Assembly: GCA_045576355.1 (NCBI GenBank)
Contig: JAZNGG010000047.1
Coordinates: forward strand, 3,519-67,518
Reading direction: 5' to 3'
DNA: 64,000 bases
Source: Bacteroidales bacterium
Lineage (GTDB): Bacteria; Bacteroidota; Bacteroidia; Bacteroidales; UBA3663
Made by a program: the position numbers and the translations under genes. This document shows, piece after piece, positions 3,026-51,404 of the stretch. The stretch's first letter is position 1; each line of letters begins with the position of its first letter. The notes beneath the pieces were generated by a model. It did no database searches. It was given only the letters and a program-made list of their open reading frames with translations, and was not told the origin of the DNA.

Positions 3026-4771
3026 ATGGAAAACGATGCATTATTGAAAGAAGTGACCGCTAAAGCACAAACGTGGTTAGGAGCGGGTTTTGATGAAGAA
3101 ACACGGGCTCAGGTGCAGGCAATGCTTGATAATCCTGACAAAACAGATCTGATCGAAAGTTTCTATCGAGAGTTAGAATTTGGAACTGGAGGCTTGCGTG
3201 GCATCATGGGCGCCGGTACCAATCGTATGAATCGTTATGTAGTTGGTATGGCAACACAAGGTCTTGCCAATTATCTCCATAAGGCATTCCCCGGGAAGAA
3301 AGATTTGAGTGTTGTTGTTGGCCATGATTGTCGTAACAATAGCCGTGCATTTGCTGAGACAGTTGCTGCTATTTTCAGTGCCAATGATATTCAGGTTTAT
3401 CTTTTTGAGTCTCTCCGTCCGACTCCGGAAATCTCTTTTGCTATTCGTGAATTGGGATGCCAAAGTGGTGTGAATATTACTGCAAGTCACAACCCTAAAG
3501 AATATAACGGCTATAAGGCCTATTGGGATGATGGAGCACAAGTGCTAAGTCCACATGATACCGGTATTATCGAAGAAGTGAATAAGGTGACAGTGGAGCA
3601 AGTGAAGTTTACTCCTAATCCGGAGTTGATCCGAATTATCGGAGGAGAAATGGATGTCAACTATCTTAAAGCTGTCAAAGAGTGCTGTGTGGATCCGGCA
3701 GTCATTGAGAGACATAAGGATTTGAAGATTGTATATACTCCTATCCATGGCACAGGCCGAGTAATTATTCCGGCATCTCTTCGTCTTTGGGGATTCCAAA
3801 ACATTTGGGTTGTTCCGGAGCAGATGGAGGTTAATGGTGATTTCCCGACAGTCATTTCTCCAAATCCGGAAAATGCTGAGGCATTGACTCTTGCCCTCCA
3901 ATTGGGAACAAAGGTGGATGCCGATTTGGTCATTGCAAGTGATCCGGATGCCGATCGTTTAGGAATTGCTTGCCGTGATGATAAGGGAGAATGGGTCTTG
4001 ATCAATGGAAACCAGACTTGTATGATGTATTGCTACTACATCATTACCAATATGAAGAAATTGGGCAAGTTGAAAGGCAACGAATTCTTGGTGAAGACCA
4101 TTGTAACTTCAGAGTTGATCCGCAAGATCGCAGATAAAAATGGTGTTAAACTCTATGATGAATACACAGGATTTAAATGGATTGCTTATCGTATCCGTCA
4201 ATTAGAGGGTGTTGAGAAATATATTGGTGGCGGTGAGGAATCTTATGGCTTCCTTCCTTATGATAAAGTGCGCGATAAAGATTCTCCGGCATCTATTTCT
4301 CTTATTGCAGAGATCGCTGCCTATGCTAAAGATAACGGTATGACTCTTTTCCAACTTCTCCAGCAGATTTATTTGGACTATGGCTTCCAAAAGGAAAAGG
4401 CTGTCTCTGTAGTTAAACCCGGCAAGAGTGGCGCAGAGGAGATCAAGGCTATGATGGAGAACTTCCGCAATGATCCTCCTAAGGAGTTAGGCGGTTCGAA
4501 AGTTATAAAGATCAAGGACTTCAAGACTTTGGAGGAAACTTGTGTCGAATGTGGTAAGGTAACCAAGATTGATATGCCGGCTACATCCAATGTATTGCAG
4601 TATTTCACAGAGGATGGAACTAAAGTGAGTGTGCGTCCATCGGGTACTGAGCCTAAGATTAAATTCTATTGTGAAGTTCCTGCAGAGATGAAATCTCGTG
4701 AAGATTATGAGGCTGCCAATGCTGCCGCAGAGGAGAAATTGAAACTCGTATGTAAGGATCTCGGCATCTGA
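3026..4771 (+). CDS. Phosphoglucomutase/phosphomannomutase (alpha-D-phosphohexomutase family)
   Basis: 581 aa. Phosphoserine loop TASHNPKEYNGYK, Mg-binding DPDADR, sugar-binding GGEESYG. Confidence 0.9.
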   Translation: MENDALLKEVTAKAQTWLGAGFDEETRAQVQAMLDNPDKTDLIESFYRELEFGTGGLRGIMGAGTNRMNRYVVGMATQGLANYLHKAFPGKKDLSVVVGHDCRNNSRAFAETVAAIFSANDIQVYLFESLRPTPEISFAIRELGCQSGVNITASHNPKEYNGYKAYWDDGAQVLSPHDTGIIEEVNKVTVEQVKFTPNPELIRIIGGEMDVNYLKAVKECCVDPAVIERHKDLKIVYTPIHGTGRVIIPASLRLWGFQNIWVVPEQMEVNGDFPTVISPNPENAEALTLALQLGTKVDADLVIASDPDADRLGIACRDDKGEWVLINGNQTCMMYCYYIITNMKKLGKLKGNEFLVKTIVTSELIRKIADKNGVKLYDEYTGFKWIAYRIRQLEGVEKYIGGGEESYGFLPYDKVRDKDSPASISLIAEIAAYAKDNGMTLFQLLQQIYLDYGFQKEKAVSVVKPGKSGAEEIKAMMENFRNDPPKELGGSKVIKIKDFKTLEETCVECGKVTKIDMPATSNVLQYFTEDGTKVSVRPSGTEPKIKFYCEVPAEMKSREDYEAANAAAEEKLKLVCKDLGI

Positions 4772-4951: not shown

Positions 4952-6148
4952 TTAATATTTTTTAGCCAATCCCCCTTCTGCAGTCTCTTTGTATAGACTA
5001 GGGAGATCATGTCCTGTCTCTTTCATGACCTCAATGACTTTGTCAAAGCATATCCGGTGTGTACCGTCGCCATAGCAAGCATAACTGCAACAATCCAATG
5101 CTCGTGCAGCTGCATACGCATTACGTTCGATGCAAGGTATCTGTACCAAGCCACACACAGGGTCGCAGGTCAATCCTAAATGGTGTTCTAATCCCATCTC
5201 TGCTGCATATTCTATTTGGCTGACCGTTCCTCCATAGATTTGTGCTGCCGCCGCTGCCGCCATAGCGCATGCTACACCGACCTCTCCCTGACATCCTACC
5301 TCTGCACCACTGATAGAAGCATTGGTCTTTACCACTGTGCCGAATAGACCGGCAGTGGCCAGCGCTCTATGGATGCGATGGTCTGAGAAGTGATGTTGTT
5401 TCCAAAGATAGTATAACACACCCGGTAATATGCCACAACTGCCACAGGTCGGTGCAGTTACGATGATGCCTCCGGCAGCATTCTCTTCAGCTGTGGCTAG
5501 TGCATATGCGTAAATTAATCCTTTAGAACGCATGCTCCCTTGATAGCTATGAGCTTTAGTCAGGTATTCACAAGCTTTTCGGCGCAGTCCTAATCCCCCA
5601 TGAAGCACCCCTTCGGCATCTAATCCACGTTCGACTGCAGCAACCATTGTTTTCCAAATTTCGTCTAGAAAATCCCAAATCTCTTTTCCTTCAGCTTGCT
5701 CGACATATTCCCAAAAACTATATCCTGTCCGGTGGCACCACTCTTGTATTTGAGAGATGCTTTGCATGTCATACACATCTTGGTGCTGCATCGGTGTATC
5801 TTCTCCTTCAGAGAGCGCTCCCCCTCCGATGCTATATACTATCCAATCTTTTTGCACATTATCATTACAATCCAATGCTTCAAACTTCATCCCGTTGGGG
5901 TGGAAAGGAAGAAATGTTTCCGGATACCAGCAAATTTCTGTCGGAGCGATGGGTGAGAGGACATTGAGTATTGCGACATCTGTAAGGTGTCCTTTCCCGG
6001 TTGCCGCCAGACTGCCATAAAGAGAGACTCTATAGTGAGACGTATTGGGTGTTTTTTCTGCAAAATGTAGGGCAGCTTTGCGGGGACCCATCGTGTGACT
6101 GGAGGAGGGACCTTGTCCAATATTATATAATTCGCGAATTGATTCCAT
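4952..6148 (-). CDS. sdaA: L-serine ammonia-lyase (iron-sulfur-dependent L-serine dehydratase, single-chain)
   Basis: 398 aa. N-terminal GQGPSSSHTMGP motif, a Cys-rich Fe-S region (APTCGSCG ... CIERNA), and full-length colinearity with SdaA. Confidence 0.9.
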   Translation of the reverse strand: MESIRELYNIGQGPSSSHTMGPRKAALHFAEKTPNTSHYRVSLYGSLAATGKGHLTDVAILNVLSPIAPTEICWYPETFLPFHPNGMKFEALDCNDNVQKDWIVYSIGGGALSEGEDTPMQHQDVYDMQSISQIQEWCHRTGYSFWEYVEQAEGKEIWDFLDEIWKTMVAAVERGLDAEGVLHGGLGLRRKACEYLTKAHSYQGSMRSKGLIYAYALATAEENAAGGIIVTAPTCGSCGILPGVLYYLWKQHHFSDHRIHRALATAGLFGTVVKTNASISGAEVGCQGEVGVACAMAAAAAAQIYGGTVSQIEYAAEMGLEHHLGLTCDPVCGLVQIPCIERNAYAAARALDCCSYACYGDGTHRICFDKVIEVMKETGHDLPSLYKETAEGGLAKKY

Positions 6149-33585: not shown

Positions 33586-34872
33586 TTACTCAAAGCCTTC
33601 ATCCCTTACCAACCATTCCCAAATCGGGATAACCTGTATTGTATATTCCTGTTCTTCAATGATTTCTGTTTCTTGATCTGTGATAAGAAATATATTATTA
33701 CATTTTGTAGCCTTGGCTCCTGCAATACATCCTTTGATTTCCCGTTTCCTTGTTTTTGAATTGGTGATATCATAACTTACTTGATATACTGCAAGAGTTT
33801 TGTTTCCATCGCATACCACAAAATCTGCTTCAGCACTTCTGCCTTGGTAGTAGTATATGTCTTTTTCCGTCCCGGCTTTCCTGCGCAATAATTCCAAATA
33901 TACTATTGTCTCTAATCTCCAACCTAAATTTTCTCCCGAAAAGGCATTTTCTCGTTTGTCCATAAATGAGACATCTATAGCATATGATTTTTCGCCTCTT
34001 GTTCGTATTGTACTTTTTGTCGAATATTTTTTTATGGTAGAGATCAAATATGTTTGATTCAAATATAGGAGGAAATTGCTAAGGGTTTGTTCGCTTTTTA
34101 TATTTATCGTATTTTGAAGTGTCTCCTTAACTATAATTGTAGGAGTTTCATTGAGAATATGATGTGCAAGTCTTTTCAAAGCATCAATATTGCGTATATT
34201 ATATCGTTTCTTGATGTCTTGTGTTATGATGTTGTCTATTAAAGTACTTATATATTCTTTCGGTTTCTCTTCGCCTGATATAAGTTCCGGAAAACCTCCT
34301 TGATGAAAATATTCTTCGTAGGCTTTGGATATTAACCCTCTGTTTTTTGTTGTCAATCGAGTATAATCCAATCCTTTTATCATGCACCAGTCTTTAAATG
34401 AAAAAGGAAATAACTCGATCTTATGATGTCTTCCTGTGAGATGAGATGCTAATTCGACACTCAAAAGTTTTGCATTACTACCGGTGATTAGTACATGAAT
34501 CCGTTGTCTAAGTAAACGGTTTACAAATAATGGCCATCCGTCTATATTTTGTATTTCGTCTAAAAACAGATAATCAAACTTGCCATATATTTTGTATAAA
34601 ATCTGAAGAACTTTATCCAAATCTTGAGTCCCTAACTCCTCTAAACGCTCGTCATCAAAGTTTGCATATGCAAATTGTACTTTGGCTTTTTTCAGAGCAT
34701 TAAAACAAAGAGTGGACTTCCCGCTTCGACGCACACCAATTACTACCTGGGCAAGTTTGCTTTTCAGATTTATAAAATCTTCTTCCGGTCGGTGTATCAA
34801 TACGTCTTTCCCTAAAGCTTTCAGTTCATCTTGCTGCTCGAGTAATACTTTCTCTATTTCTGTATGTTTCAT
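33586..34872 (-). CDS. AAA ATPase (AAA_14-type) with a DUF4143-like C-terminal PD-(D/E)xK-like region
   Basis: 428 aa. Walker A GVRRSGKST, Walker B YLFLDEIQ. The C-terminal AEADFVVCDGNKTLAVYQVSYD resembles a restriction-endonuclease-fold motif. The gene is AT-rich. Confidence 0.8.
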   Translation of the reverse strand: MKHTEIEKVLLEQQDELKALGKDVLIHRPEEDFINLKSKLAQVVIGVRRSGKSTLCFNALKKAKVQFAYANFDDERLEELGTQDLDKVLQILYKIYGKFDYLFLDEIQNIDGWPLFVNRLLRQRIHVLITGSNAKLLSVELASHLTGRHHKIELFPFSFKDWCMIKGLDYTRLTTKNRGLISKAYEEYFHQGGFPELISGEEKPKEYISTLIDNIITQDIKKRYNIRNIDALKRLAHHILNETPTIIVKETLQNTINIKSEQTLSNFLLYLNQTYLISTIKKYSTKSTIRTRGEKSYAIDVSFMDKRENAFSGENLGWRLETIVYLELLRRKAGTEKDIYYYQGRSAEADFVVCDGNKTLAVYQVSYDITNSKTRKREIKGCIAGAKATKCNNIFLITDQETEIIEEQEYTIQVIPIWEWLVRDEGFE

Positions 34873-47478: not shown

Positions 47479-47804
47479 AGATTTAATATTTAATGTAATA
47501 TTGCAGATTATACTTATTGGTTGTTTTTACGCATCCGGATAGAGATGACAAACAGATTCCTTAATAATACGAAACTTACCTTGTGTATATCGATTGCGCG
47601 AAAACGCTACAAATTTACGAAAAAAAATAAATGGGTGTCCTCTTTTGGGAGCTTTTTTTATTAAGTATAACATATTTATGAGAGAATTGCGCAATATCTC
47701 TTTCCTAATCTGCACTTTTGGAATGGTAAACGAGAAACTTCATGGCTAAAATAATTAACCAAGTAATATAGTAAAAGATAGAGTATGGGGAGGATTTTTA
47801 GATT

Positions 47805-49187
47805 TTATTTGCCGAGTGTTTTCCACTTTTCACATTGTGAAAGAAGTACTTCTTTTCCATCGGCATCTGTTACAAACGTACTTTCTGAAGGAAGATCTAC
47901 AACCCAATAATCCCCCTCTTTACGGGGAAGTCTGGGGTGCAGATGGGGAAATGCAGAGAGTGCTGAGATGATTTCTCTTTTAAGTTTAGAAAGATTTTGC
48001 GATAGGTGTGTATCAAATCTGATCTCTTCTTCCTCTTCGCTTCCATCCAGCCAATTGATGTATATCTGTCTGAAAATATTATCGATTTTTTTGCGATGTG
48101 CCTCGGTGGGGTAGTGGACGTAGAGAGCACCATCTTTTCCACATAGAGTCTGTCGGATGATGAGCAAATAGAGCGCCATCCGTTTAGGTGGTAAATGAAG
48201 TTCTGCACCGACCTCTGGATATCGGATTACTCTGTGGAGTGTGTCTATAACCATTCGACTATCTTGCTGTTTGCGGAATAGAAAAATATCATAGAGGGTT
48301 TTATAAAATCCAAAATACTTGAATGAGTGCTCTTTATTTGGATAAATGACAGATGGGTTATATCCGGAAAGATGTTTATAACTCTCTAAGAAATTTTTCA
48401 TCTCCTCTTTGAACGTATTTTGGATATCAATGCGGAGAATCTCAGAGAAAAATCGACTTTTCCCATCAGGAAGAGCAGGTGTAAGTGTGGAATAACCAAC
48501 ATTGATTATTAATGCCGGATCTGTTTCCCGGATCCCATAGTAAGACATTGTGTCACTTAAATAATCTTTGCAGAATTTTTGAGATGTTAGGGAGCAGATA
48601 TGCTGATATATCGTAGTGATTTCAGATTCATGAAGCCGAGGAGAAATATAACTGAGTACGTTACACATATATTTCTGAGGCATTGCTCTAAAATCCTGAA
48701 CGAATTGGGGAATGTAGATAAAATCAAAGCCTGCAAGTTTAAAAGTGCTATGTATGCTCTCGATGTTTTGTCCGATGTAGGCATTGAGTTCCTCATCGTA
48801 TTCACTTTCAACATAGATCACATATTGCTCTTTAAAAGTCAAATAATTGGTTTCTATAGAGGTGAGTGCACAATAATCTGCAGTTTCTTTATTCAGACGA
48901 TATTGCAGTGCCAATAATAATAATGCCTCTCGAGGGGAGCTGTTGCCATCGATCATGCATAGTTTACGACAGTCGGTAATCAGCTCTGCTTTACATTCGC
49001 AGTTGTCCAGCATTGAGACAGCAGAGGAAAATGAAATCTCCTGCGCTTTAATTTTGTGTTCTTGAGAGATGGAATATTTTTGAGTTAGCTCATTGAGAAA
49101 ACTGATTTCCTCTTCATCAATGATGCCATCTACTCTGATAAAAACAGTAAACAGATGAGCAATGGCAATGCGTTGGTCGCAAGTCAT
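47805..49187 (-). CDS. TerB-like N-terminal domain protein with a large uncharacterised C-terminal region
   Basis: 460 aa. Two TerB-type helices (FIRVDGIIDEEEISFLNEL; LCMIDGNSSPREALLLLAL). The remaining ~330 aa were not recognised. Its ATG overlaps the upstream stop codon (ATGA, 49184-49187). Confidence 0.6.
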   Translation of the reverse strand: MTCDQRIAIAHLFTVFIRVDGIIDEEEISFLNELTQKYSISQEHKIKAQEISFSSAVSMLDNCECKAELITDCRKLCMIDGNSSPREALLLLALQYRLNKETADYCALTSIETNYLTFKEQYVIYVESEYDEELNAYIGQNIESIHSTFKLAGFDFIYIPQFVQDFRAMPQKYMCNVLSYISPRLHESEITTIYQHICSLTSQKFCKDYLSDTMSYYGIRETDPALIINVGYSTLTPALPDGKSRFFSEILRIDIQNTFKEEMKNFLESYKHLSGYNPSVIYPNKEHSFKYFGFYKTLYDIFLFRKQQDSRMVIDTLHRVIRYPEVGAELHLPPKRMALYLLIIRQTLCGKDGALYVHYPTEAHRKKIDNIFRQIYINWLDGSEEEEEIRFDTHLSQNLSKLKREIISALSAFPHLHPRLPRKEGDYWVVDLPSESTFVTDADGKEVLLSQCEKWKTLGK

Positions 49188-50140
49188 GTTTGTTGGACGT
49201 CTTTAATGGAAATGATTTTGTTTACTATGGCAAAGATGGTAAGTCCGGAAACAGAACGGATGTTGAGTTTTCGAGAAATATTTTTACGGTGAGTTAGCAC
49301 AGTATTTACTGAGATATAGAGCTCGTCTGCGATTTCCTTGTTGGTTTTCCCCTTGACGATCCATCCTACGATTTCTTTTTCTCTTTCACTGAGAATGTCA
49401 GATTTTTCATCCGATGAGGATGAAGGTGTTTTTTCAGTGGTGGGCTGCAAGCGAATTTGTTCTTCTAAAATTTGTATCGCCGGAAGGAAGAGTAAGTCTT
49501 CTACTTCGCAGTGGTTGTGCATGTCTGCCTCACAAGTAAAAATGTCAAAGAGCACGCTGTTAAGTAGTTCTGAATTGCAAGATGATCCTTGATAATATTT
49601 GATGATAAGATTTTTCAATTCTTGTAATTTCTTATCTGTATCATCATGTGTCTTGGAGTAGGTGGTTATGTCAAATTCTTTAGGAATAATCCCTTGCATC
49701 AATTGATCTACATAGGTAAAAAGGTTTTTGTTTTCGAGCAACATGTGTTTTCTGACTTTTCCCATGTATTCATCGTAAAATTTCAGAATTAAGAAAGCCA
49801 CTTCATTTTCAGCAGAGCAGTCAAGAGCTTCGATCAACTTACGTCTGATCTTTGGTAACTGGAAGTCTAAAAAATAACTATGAGCTTGACGCAGATAGGA
49901 AATTAGTCCGGGCACCGAAACTTTATCGATATAGTAAGGAAGCACCTGTCGCCCGTGCTTCATGTAATTGGCAACAGCCAAGAAAGTGAGTGTGTCCACA
50001 TTATTTTCCTCACAGATTTCTTGGACGGTCTTTTCTCCACAACCCAAGGGAATACCGAAACGACACATCATCTGAAGTAAGTGAAATTCATCACTGATTA
50101 TGTCGCAGATTTTATCGGTTTGTTTATATGTTGATGCCAT
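49184..50140 (-). CDS. Transcription factor: RIC/YtfE-like (ScdA_N plus di-iron hemerythrin-like) sensor domain fused to a LuxR/GerE-type HTH
   Basis: 318 aa. RFGIPLGCGEKTVQEICEENNVD matches the ScdA_N pattern FGIDFCCGG..TL.EAC. His/Glu ligand positions align with YtfE: AHSYF, KHMLLEN..LF, KTHDD, HNHCEVEDLLFLP. The C-terminal EREKEIVGWIVKGKTNKEIADELYISVNTVLTHRKNISRKL is a LuxR HTH. Confidence 0.75.
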   Translation of the reverse strand: MASTYKQTDKICDIISDEFHLLQMMCRFGIPLGCGEKTVQEICEENNVDTLTFLAVANYMKHGRQVLPYYIDKVSVPGLISYLRQAHSYFLDFQLPKIRRKLIEALDCSAENEVAFLILKFYDEYMGKVRKHMLLENKNLFTYVDQLMQGIIPKEFDITTYSKTHDDTDKKLQELKNLIIKYYQGSSCNSELLNSVLFDIFTCEADMHNHCEVEDLLFLPAIQILEEQIRLQPTTEKTPSSSSDEKSDILSEREKEIVGWIVKGKTNKEIADELYISVNTVLTHRKNISRKLNIRSVSGLTIFAIVNKIISIKDVQQT

Positions 50141-50161: not shown

Positions 50162-50191
50162 CAAAGATAACAAAAATTCTGAATTGTTATC
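50162..50191 (-). promoter_or_regulatory. -7 box TAtcTTTG (minus strand) overlapped by an inverted repeat; candidate operator or chrA terminator
   Basis: Plus-strand caaagata at 50162-50169, 22 bp from the ATG (50140). gataacaa (50166-50173) pairs with ttgttatc (50184-50191), with an inner aattc/gaatt dyad. Confidence 0.55.
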
Positions 50192-50214: not shown

Positions 50215-50835
50215 CTATAACAATGGTAAACCGTAAATCAAAAAGCCTGCTACTCCAGACATGCAGATGGTGTAAATGAGATTCCATTTATAGTGACGAG
50301 ACCCCAAAAACACGATAATAAATATCAGTATGCTGATGGCAAATTGTAGAGGACTATCTTTTATATTTCCAAAATTAGCAGAGGTCATCAAAGACAATGA
50401 GGCAGCTGCAATCAGACCAATGATGGCGGGACGTAAAAAACTGAATATTGTACGGCTGATAAGATCGTTTTTGTGCTTGAGTATGAATTTACTGATGGCA
50501 ATCATCAGCATAAAAGGAAGCCATAATACAGATAGGGTGGCAATGACCGACCCCAACACCCCCATGGCAGAGAGTAAAGTGGGAGAGGAGGCAAATAAGT
50601 CTTGCATATAGGGATCATTGATAACTGATGTATAACCGACATAAGTAGCAGCATTGATTCCGATAGGTCCCGGTGTCATTTGTGATATGGCGACGATGTC
50701 AGTAAATTCTGACTCAGATATCCAGCCGTTTTTATTCACCACTTCATTTTGGATAAAAGAGAGCATGGCATATCCTCCTCCAAAATTGAATATGCCGATT
50801 TTGCTGAAGACTAAAAATAGTTTTAAAAGTATCAT
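50215..50835 (-). CDS. chrA: Chromate transporter (CHR family) half-protein, C-terminal partner
   Basis: 206 aa. FGGGYAMLSFIQNEVV...WISESEF motif. Overlaps the upstream half by 4 bp. Confidence 0.8.
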   Translation of the reverse strand: MILLKLFLVFSKIGIFNFGGGYAMLSFIQNEVVNKNGWISESEFTDIVAISQMTPGPIGINAATYVGYTSVINDPYMQDLFASSPTLLSAMGVLGSVIATLSVLWLPFMLMIAISKFILKHKNDLISRTIFSFLRPAIIGLIAAASLSLMTSANFGNIKDSPLQFAISILIFIIVFLGSRHYKWNLIYTICMSGVAGFLIYGLPLL

Positions 50836-51404
50836 TCTTTCTCTCTCTGATTAGTATTATTTTTGTCTTTCATTTTGAGATATCTTCCATAAAAGAACCC
50901 TCCTATACCGGCTGAAGCAATGATCCACACCGGAGAGACTCCGAGTAAAACAATCAGTAGTGTAGCTATGATGGGTATCCAAATGGTGTAGCGAGTAAGT
51001 TGTGCAGTCTTTGCCAGACTGAAAACCGGAAGGGCAATGAGGGCAACGACAGCCGGGCGAATTCCTTTAAAGATCGCTTCTATATAGGGGTTGTTCTTAT
51101 ATCGAGTGAATATTCCTGCTATTAGGAGAATAATGATTAAAGAGGGAAGAATGTTACCTAAAGTGGCATAAATAGCCCCTCTTATACCGGCTATCTTGTA
51201 TCCGATATGACTTGCCATATTGATGGCAAAAACACCCGGCATAGCTTGTGAAACAGCTAAGATATCGAGGAACTCTTTTTGATTGAGCCAACCTTTTCTT
51301 TGTACAATCTCTTTCTCCATCAAAGGGATCATGGCTGCACCTCCTCCGATGGTAAATCCTCCAATCTTTAGAAACGAGATAAAAAGTTGTTTGTTGATAT
51401 TCAT
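50832..51404 (-). CDS. chrA: Chromate transporter (CHR family) half-protein, N-terminal partner
   Basis: 190 aa, with the motif GGFTIGGGAAMIPLMEKEIVQRKGWL. Confidence 0.8.
   Translation of the reverse strand: MNINKQLFISFLKIGGFTIGGGAAMIPLMEKEIVQRKGWLNQKEFLDILAVSQAMPGVFAINMASHIGYKIAGIRGAIYATLGNILPSLIIILLIAGIFTRYKNNPYIEAIFKGIRPAVVALIALPVFSLAKTAQLTRYTIWIPIIATLLIVLLGVSPVWIIASAGIGGFFYGRYLKMKDKNNTNQREKE

Follow-up and report, generated by a model that had tools for sequence, protein, structure and literature searches.

A putative CdhR-type RIC-LuxR regulator gene and a TerB-like gene of a defence-associated family as probably unrelated neighbours in a Bacteroidales genome

Two adjoining genes on the minus strand of a Bacteroidales bacterium (UBA3663; assembly GCA_045576355.1, contig JAZNGG010000047.1) are the subject of this analysis. 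They lie at positions 47805 to 50140 of a stretch of 64,000 nucleotides (contig positions 3,519 to 67,518), which was analysed as a whole and is called the window here. The upstream gene encodes a 318-residue protein that combines a domain of the RIC (YtfE/ScdA) type with a LuxR-type helix-turn-helix (HTH), hereafter the regulator, while the downstream gene encodes a TerB-like protein of 460 residues. A sequence-only reading of this DNA had interpreted the pair as a sensor module responding to nitric oxide (NO), O2 or iron. The open reading frames (ORFs), the four-base overlap between them and the motifs quoted in that reading are all real. The features of the two genes are the following.

49184..50140, minus strand: regulator gene, 318 amino acids (ORF; Pfam Hemerythrin and GerE; TIGR03652; AlphaFold2 (AF2) model; Foldseek)
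49931..50113, minus strand: ScdA_N-like helical subdomain, about residues 10-70, RFGIPLGCGEKTVQEIC (colinear with the ScdA N-terminal domain)
49448..49915, minus strand: four-helix-bundle domain with a predicted di-iron site, residues 76-231 (PF01814; model helices; ligand positions)
49397..49447, minus strand: flexible linker, residues 232-248 (low predicted local distance difference test (pLDDT) values; variable alignment columns)
49229..49396, minus strand: GerE/LuxR HTH, residues 249-304 (PF00196; Foldseek; invariant recognition helix)
49184..49187, minus strand: ATGA stop/start overlap of the regulator and TerB-like genes (sequence)
47805..49187, minus strand: TerB-like family gene, 460 amino acids (ORF; homologue family; AF2 model)
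48894..49187, minus strand: TerB-like helical N-terminal domain, residues 1-98, with D20/E27 and D80/E87 (family-level Pfam and 2h5n matches)

The domain structure of the regulator was established with sequence profiles and a structure model. Pfam Hemerythrin (PF01814) matches residues 80-222 with 29.7 bits (cut-off 25.3) and Pfam GerE (PF00196) matches residues 249-304 with 68.8 bits (E 3e-19). The NCBIfam profile for RIC proteins, TIGR03652, aligns residues 13-219 to its positions 3-213 of 216 (E 2e-10), with a score of 40.9 bits that is far under the equivalog cut-off of 204.7. Profiles of the regulator family align colinearly with Staphylococcus aureus ScdA (PDB 9j47 and 9r7j) over the whole chain; ScdA was reached by profiles only, as a single-sequence phmmer search of the PDB with the N-terminal 235 residues gave no match. 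The AF2 model has a mean pLDDT of 90.4 and comprises a helical N-terminal subdomain, four long bundle helices (residues 76-105, 113-148, 166-182 and 187-231), a linker and a four-helix HTH. In the linker region the pLDDT drops to 58-64 in the blocks spanning residues 231-250 and to below 50 at residues 238-242. The top PDB matches of the model in Foldseek are YtfE (5fnn, 5fny and 7bhc) and ScdA (9j47 and 9r7j), with a probability of 1.00, a template modelling (TM) score of 0.72-0.73 over 156-161 columns and a root mean square deviation (rmsd) of 3.5 Å, while the HTH superimposes on the DNA-binding domains of LiaR, VraR and GerE with a TM score of about 0.8 and an rmsd of 1.4-1.9 Å.

The ligand positions further support this assignment. 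All of 66 homologues with 56-73% identity have the predicted di-iron ligands H87, H132, E136, H165, H210 and E214, and conservation at these six positions is still 89% or more among 93 representatives from clustering at 50% identity, of which 35 are fused and 58 stand alone. In the profile alignment, H132/E136 are matched by EHMQKED of ScdA, H165 by SDH and H210/E214 by EHVHLEN. The ligands of YtfE are H84, H129, E133, H160, H204 and E208, and they have the same spacing as those in the window regulator. At the other end of the chain, the recognition-helix residues N279, T280, T283, H284, R285, K286 and N287 are invariant in the homologues, the window protein included. Pfam, TIGR03652, the ScdA profiles, the ligands and the AF2/Foldseek comparison thus agree on a RIC-like architecture and a LuxR HTH in one chain, with His and Glu at the di-iron ligand positions of YtfE as had been read from the sequence. 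Together with the ligand conservation and a model of pLDDT 90, they make a one-component sensor-regulator a sensible description of the protein.

Compared with the RIC proteins Escherichia coli YtfE and S. aureus ScdA (TIGR03652; 5FNN, 9J47, 9R7J), the regulator shares the helical N-terminal domain followed by a four-helix bundle and the His4Glu2 ligand pattern with equal spacing, and these proteins are its best structural matches. It differs from them by an identity of only about 14-18%, by the score far below the equivalog cut-off and by the replacement of the Cys-Cys motif. Unlike a stand-alone RIC protein of about 220 residues it carries an added C-terminal HTH, and its predicted role is signal input rather than iron-sulfur (Fe-S) cluster repair.

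The ScdA_N-like segment was recovered in part. It is colinear with the N-terminal domain of ScdA, and R27, F28, G33 and C43 are invariant in the alignment of regulator homologues. However, Pfam ScdA_N is not detected on the regulator at E≤10, and the ScdA sequence GIDFCCGG falls on GIPLG(V/C)GEK in the regulator family (GIPLGVGEK in the window), so that the Cys pair is not kept and only C43 is invariant there. Cys43 (window 50012-50014) is invariant in the fused as well as the stand-alone forms, and Cys203 and Cys211, beside the ligand H210, are common in fused members. All three are absent from canonical ScdA, and a second redox or metal site is possible.

The regulator belongs to a large family. 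The best 120 database matches all carry both PF01814 and PF00196, that is, they are fused, and at least 288 loci of the family were found among GTDB species representatives, the record titles of which mostly name Alloprevotella, Prevotella, Prevotellaceae, Bacteroidaceae and Tannerella. With a profile of the sensor part, 2094 representatives match at E≤1e-3, and among the best 150 of these, proteins of about 320 residues with GerE are mixed with proteins of about 230 residues without it. One metagenomic locus (L140; L numbers denote homologue loci) contains a split pair. Here a 234-residue protein (P0245), 49% identical to the N-terminus of the window regulator, is followed with a 14-nucleotide overlap by a 202-residue GerE protein, the HTH of which is 57% identical to that of the window.

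This layout matches published systems of Bacteroidales in which a hemerythrin-type domain is coupled to GerE/LuxR (PMC10434189 Fig. 3E; PMC11018363). In Porphyromonas gingivalis, the hemerythrin-like protein PG1236 (27.5 kDa) and the LuxR protein PG1237, called CdhR (22 kDa), are apparently co-transcribed, and CdhR acts as a transcription factor (PMC11018363). PG1236-37 have been equated with BT0519-BT0520 of Bacteroides thetaiotaomicron, both split operons are up 7- to 20-fold in low iron, and a fused form was noted in Prevotella intermedia (PIN17_RS10465; PMC10434189). The L140 pair fits PG1236/CdhR in size. The hemerythrin-LuxR regulator family is already known and widespread in Bacteroidales, and the window protein is probably a further member; the statement in the sequence-only reading that there is no characterised example is outdated, since PG1236-CdhR has been studied genetically and the fused P. 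intermedia form noted (PMC10434189, PMC11018363). CdhR-type systems occur only within the order Bacteroidales and take part in the responses to iron, haem and NO. The window protein differs from the split CdhR form in being fused and in lacking the N-terminal region of about 130 residues of the split GerE protein of L140, and its gene differs from the group in standing beside TerB-like and Chromate_transp genes, not iron or haem uptake genes.

Of 73 close regulator homologues, 45 are divergent to a conserved operon that encodes an outer membrane protein (OMP)-like product of about 460 residues, a Peptidase_M75 imelysin, a di-haem DHOR protein (PF06537), a Porin_O_P porin and a ResB/CcsA cytochrome c assembly protein. 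Operons with imelysin and DUF1111 have been tied to iron uptake (PMC3143127). A B. thetaiotaomicron locus with the same gene set (BT2482) is up 69- to 324-fold on iron depletion and also up in a colitis model (PMC10434189). It has the gene set and order of the divergent operon of the homologues, and its regulator, to which NCBI gives the generic name also used for family members, probably belongs to the family as well. In contrast to the BT2482 locus, the window has no such operon within its 64 kb.

By k-mer counting we found a palindrome, TACCCA-N4-TGGGTA (for example aaaaTACCCAcaagTGGGTAtt), in the divergent intergenic regions. In 42 of 79 loci a copy with at most two mismatches is present no more than 400 bp upstream of the regulator, while only 15 such sites are found in the remaining approximately 907 kb of these loci, which corresponds to an approximately 80-fold enrichment upstream of the regulator. 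It is located at L004:5880-5935, with equivalents in L023, L024, L032, L036, L037, L041, L043, L048, L049, L072 and L075. Judged from its sequence, the palindrome is a candidate operator that would fit a dimer of the GerE type. The NarL consensus is TACYYMT in a 7-2-7 arrangement. The candidate operator, written TACCCAc-aa-gTGGGTA, resembles such 7-2-7 heptamers, and the HTH is of the type found in NarL/GerE regulators; unlike NarL-type proteins, the regulator has no receiver domain or phosphorylation, its input being a metal-centre domain. In the CdhR and iron literature that we examined, no description of the palindrome as an operator was found.

Other contexts occur as well, also among the nearest relatives of the window regulator (73% and 64% identity). 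The closest one (73%; L003:3345-5870) directly follows CbiM/CbiQ/ABC genes on the same strand, which we read as an energy-coupling factor (ECF)-type cobalt/nickel transporter and thus as another metal-related context. In Tannerella metagenome-assembled genomes (L082-L086), distant fused homologues of about 30% identity lie, on the same strand, behind genes for a GFO_IDH_MocA oxidoreductase with a twin-arginine translocation (TAT) signal and for a xylose-isomerase-like TIM-barrel protein; the palindrome is absent there, pointing to another regulon for this branch. In L032, L035, L037, L042, L043, L075 and L076, a small putative ORF of about 120-180 residues separates the OMP-like gene from the regulator, just upstream of the latter and on the same strand. 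In L004 we considered whether the 461-residue gene that lies upstream of the regulator is a diverged TerB-like partner and rejected this, as the gene is unrelated and opens the imelysin operon as its OMP-like member.

The second gene of the pair has a different background. No Pfam or NCBIfam model matched the window TerB-like protein alone. Its family, however, comprises 218 matches with about 30% identity and lengths of 440-480 residues, and 71 of 75 members match Pfam TerB (PF05099) at E≤1, the best at 2e-6. The family profile matches the TerB-like structure PDB 2h5n over residues 5-89 (E 0.006). D20, I23, E27, D80 and E87 are invariant in the family, and the TerB-like motifs quoted in the sequence-only reading are located at residues 18-34 and 78-96. 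The TerB-like N-terminus proposed there is thus upheld at the level of the family but not by the window protein on its own. Although the AF2 model reaches a pLDDT of 89, a Foldseek search of the PDB and BFVD with the whole model returned nothing with E<0.6 and no TerB structure, and for the C-terminal portion of about 360 residues no relative was detected in Pfam, the PDB or BFVD. In searches of PADLOC and PHROGs the protein gave only a weak match to a CARF5 model (E 1e-3, residues 306-412, possibly winged-helix-like), on which we do not rely.

The relatives of this protein are found next to phage-defence genes. Approximately 17 homologues head a DuOB / DUF488 / DUF488-N3a / DuOB block, which corresponds to the PADLOC candidate system PDC-M45 (A/B/C); behind the block there is TmtA of Tiamat (E 2e-167), the reverse transcriptase AbiP2 (6e-161) or a helicase resembling GajB. 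Other homologues adjoin ShosA/ShosT-like (Shosta) genes, with a ShosA match of 1.5e-64. Outside the window lineage, the family is thus found at the head of, or beside, phage-defence modules of Bacteroidales from the rumen and gut. Loci of this kind are L005:7481-13344, L093, L103, L111, L112 and L119 as well as L098, L104, L109, L124 and L126, and their neighbours also include a GajB-like helicase of about 1500 residues, Shosta-like DprA/PRTase genes and HAD and LRR genes. No PADLOC model includes the TerB-like family, which could represent a component of defence or sensing that has not yet been described. It resembles the TerB defence proteins of Shango and Bunzi and the TerB proteins of ter clusters in its TerB-like N-terminus and its defence-gene surroundings (bioRxiv 10.1101/2022.05.11.491447). 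Unlike in these systems, no helicase or ATPase gene adjoins the window gene, and the PADLOC Shango and Bunzi models did not match the window protein or two relatives.

We then compared the two sets of loci with each other. With the TerB-like profile no homologue was found in any of 82 regulator loci, of which 66 have at least 1.4 kb and 74 at least 500 bp of downstream sequence. Conversely, the regulator profile found no homologue in 55 loci with TerB-like genes outside the window's own lineage. The nearest relatives of the regulator (73%, 66% and 64% identity) have no TerB-like gene. The closest non-self relative of the TerB-like protein is 32% identical, compared to 73% for the closest relative of the regulator. 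At least three assemblies of the window lineage show the arrangement, and only in this lineage do the genes overlap by 4 bp; elsewhere the TerB-like gene starts after a gap of at least 11 bp or after divergent genes. The two genes are therefore not co-conserved, and the partnership as a two-gene module that was proposed in the sequence-only reading is not supported.

At the junction itself (...CAA ACA TGA CTT GC) the ATGA is common to the TGA of the regulator and the ATG of the TerB-like gene. The overlap is not an artefact of the chosen start codon, because Met1 of the TerB-like protein aligns with Met1 of its family. Two further features concern the transcription of the pair.

50162..50169, minus strand: Bacteroidetes-type -7 box TATCTTTG, 22 nucleotides upstream of the regulator ATG
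47479..47804, minus strand: 326-bp spacer to oadG, with a separate -7 box TAAATTTG at 47610-47617

The -7 box that had been ascribed to the pair is present, but the motif TATCTTTG is seen 68 times in the window on both strands and is thus weak evidence for a promoter. No further -7 box was found on the minus strand between the regulator start and the TerB-like start, so that the TerB-like gene is probably transcribed from the regulator promoter or by read-through; co-transcription and translational coupling with the regulator are probable here. A sigma-70 promoter scan gave hits at chance level only, this model not being applicable to Bacteroidetes. No terminator-like hairpin was found in the 47479..47804 spacer, and an Rfam scan of the window matched no family. 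The claim that the pair is AT-richer than its flanks applies to the window as a whole, where the GC content of the pair (0.38-0.39) compares with a median of 0.44 for long ORFs, but not to the neighbouring chrA genes, which are similarly low (0.39-0.41). For the TerB-like gene the GC content at third codon positions (GC3) is 0.36 compared to a window median of 0.43.

Based on these data we consider it likely, with a probability of roughly 0.7, that the two genes are unrelated neighbours, namely a one-component RIC-LuxR regulator of the CdhR type and a gene of a defence-associated, TerB-like family. The simplest reading of the junction is that a gene from a defence island came to lie behind the regulator by insertion and that the two are now expressed together. 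Several points weigh against this interpretation or against extending it to function. The 4-bp overlap and the lack of an internal -7 box argue for co-expression of the genes here, and a functional link specific to this lineage is possible. The regulator also has a low GC content (0.38), and both genes might have arrived together. The equation of the family with the CdhR type draws on layout, sizes, annotation names and gene content, and the iron-stimulon study points out that iron binding by CdhR is yet to be demonstrated (PMC10434189). Di-iron and DNA binding of the fused members are predictions from sequence and model. Searches of the 64-kb window for imelysin, DHOR, porin and CcsA genes and for the palindrome with up to two mismatches found none, so that the regulator gene is separated here from the iron-uptake-like operon and its candidate operator; its targets would lie elsewhere in the genome, and the window copy could have diverged in function. 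Matches to the palindrome with three mismatches occur in the window at chance level.

As part of the interpretation that we favour, the di-iron site would report the availability of iron. The site would be filled when labile iron is sufficient, whereas starvation for iron would empty it and NO or oxidants would damage it; this change may alter dimerisation or DNA binding at the palindrome, and the altered binding would switch the divergent iron-acquisition operon and the regulator's own gene. We lean towards the iron-free form as the activator, because hmuY expression was lower in a cdhR mutant of one strain, in which CdhR thus behaved as an activator (PMC11018363, citing Wu et al. 2009). A holo-repressor similar to Fur would fit the expression data equally well. 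A more far-reaching and tentative proposal, which we consider possible but less likely than not, is that the RIC-LuxR family, in its fused and split forms, provides the direct iron sensor that Bacteroidales have so far lacked and reports iron by the occupancy of a di-iron site, as the hemerythrin domain of FBXL5 does in mammals. According to this proposal the NarL-like HTH acting on TACCCA-N4-TGGGTA would control the imelysin/DHOR operon that is strongly induced by iron starvation. As a secondary element of the same tentative proposal, the sensor operon would here have captured the TerB gene of a defence island and placed it under iron or NO control.

Alternatively, the sensor may answer mainly to NO or oxidants and not to iron supply, with nitrosylation or oxidation of the di-iron centre as the signal. 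NO induces PG1236 11.9-fold and CdhR 7.7-fold, and the cdhR mutant is NO-sensitive (PMC11018363); moreover, RIC proteins are NO/H2O2 stress proteins (PMC9268430) and the JGI name of the family is 'regulator of cell morphogenesis and NO signaling'. Still, the same cdhR mutant has no H2O2 phenotype (PMC11018363), iron depletion alone induces the same operons (PMC10434189), and the conserved neighbour is an operon of the iron-uptake type rather than a set of NO-detoxification genes. We therefore find a mainly NO- or oxidant-driven sensor doubtful. The two signals are not exclusive, because damage by NO would mimic the loss of iron.

It is unlikely that the RIC-LuxR and TerB-like proteins constitute a dedicated two-gene module responsive to NO, O2 or iron in which the TerB-like protein modulates or executes the output. 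Such a module would agree with the ATGA overlap, the lack of a -7 box between the two starts, the shared AT-richness relative to neighbouring genes and the recurrence of the arrangement within the lineage. The conserved acidic pairs D20/E27 and D80/E87 of the TerB domain also fit, as pairs of this kind were reportedly proposed to bind metal by Anantharaman et al. (2012). Against this stand the two reciprocal searches (0/82 and 0/55 loci), the nearest relatives of the regulator that do without a TerB-like gene and the fact that TerB-like relatives normally start their own unit beside defence genes. As a conserved unit the module is largely refuted.

Finally, the N-terminal module could be a working RIC protein that donates iron or repairs Fe-S clusters, with the HTH serving only autoregulation or localisation, but while all di-iron ligand positions are kept and the RIC architecture is colinear from end to end, the low score (40.9 bits, where the equivalog cut-off is 204.7), the absent ScdA_N Cys pair, the constant fusion or adjacency to a GerE regulator, the conserved candidate operator upstream and the transcription factor activity of CdhR (PMC11018363) render this highly improbable.

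Some neighbouring features of the window may be added. Two Chromate_transp (PF02417) genes of 190 and 206 residues at 50215-51404 on the minus strand overlap by 4 bp and represent a split ChrA. A distance of 74 bp separates their end from the regulator, which follows on the same strand, and read-through into the regulator is possible; a weak terminator-like hairpin lies within the 3' end of the second gene (50245-50260). Elsewhere in the window, two long ORFs of low GC content (0.33 and 0.35, GC3 0.27-0.30, compared to the median of 0.44) are possibly horizontally acquired and are probably those at 4952-6148 and 33586-34872 on the minus strand, coordinates that were matched by ORF length only.

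For the window itself the value of these results is mostly corrective: the coupling to the TerB-like gene would be a local accident and not a system, and the interest of this locus is modest. The family is the part worth following. Iron sensing in Bacteroidales is poorly understood, and the mechanisms of iron regulation in the order have been described as scarce in a study of the iron stimulon (PMC10434189). The ligand positions are kept in fused and split forms, and close fused homologues stand mostly beside an operon whose B. thetaiotaomicron counterpart, as judged by gene content, ranks among the loci most strongly induced by iron starvation. The RIC-LuxR family, a candidate for the iron sensor of Bacteroidales, would offer two testable elements, a RIC-like sensor domain and a defined putative operator.

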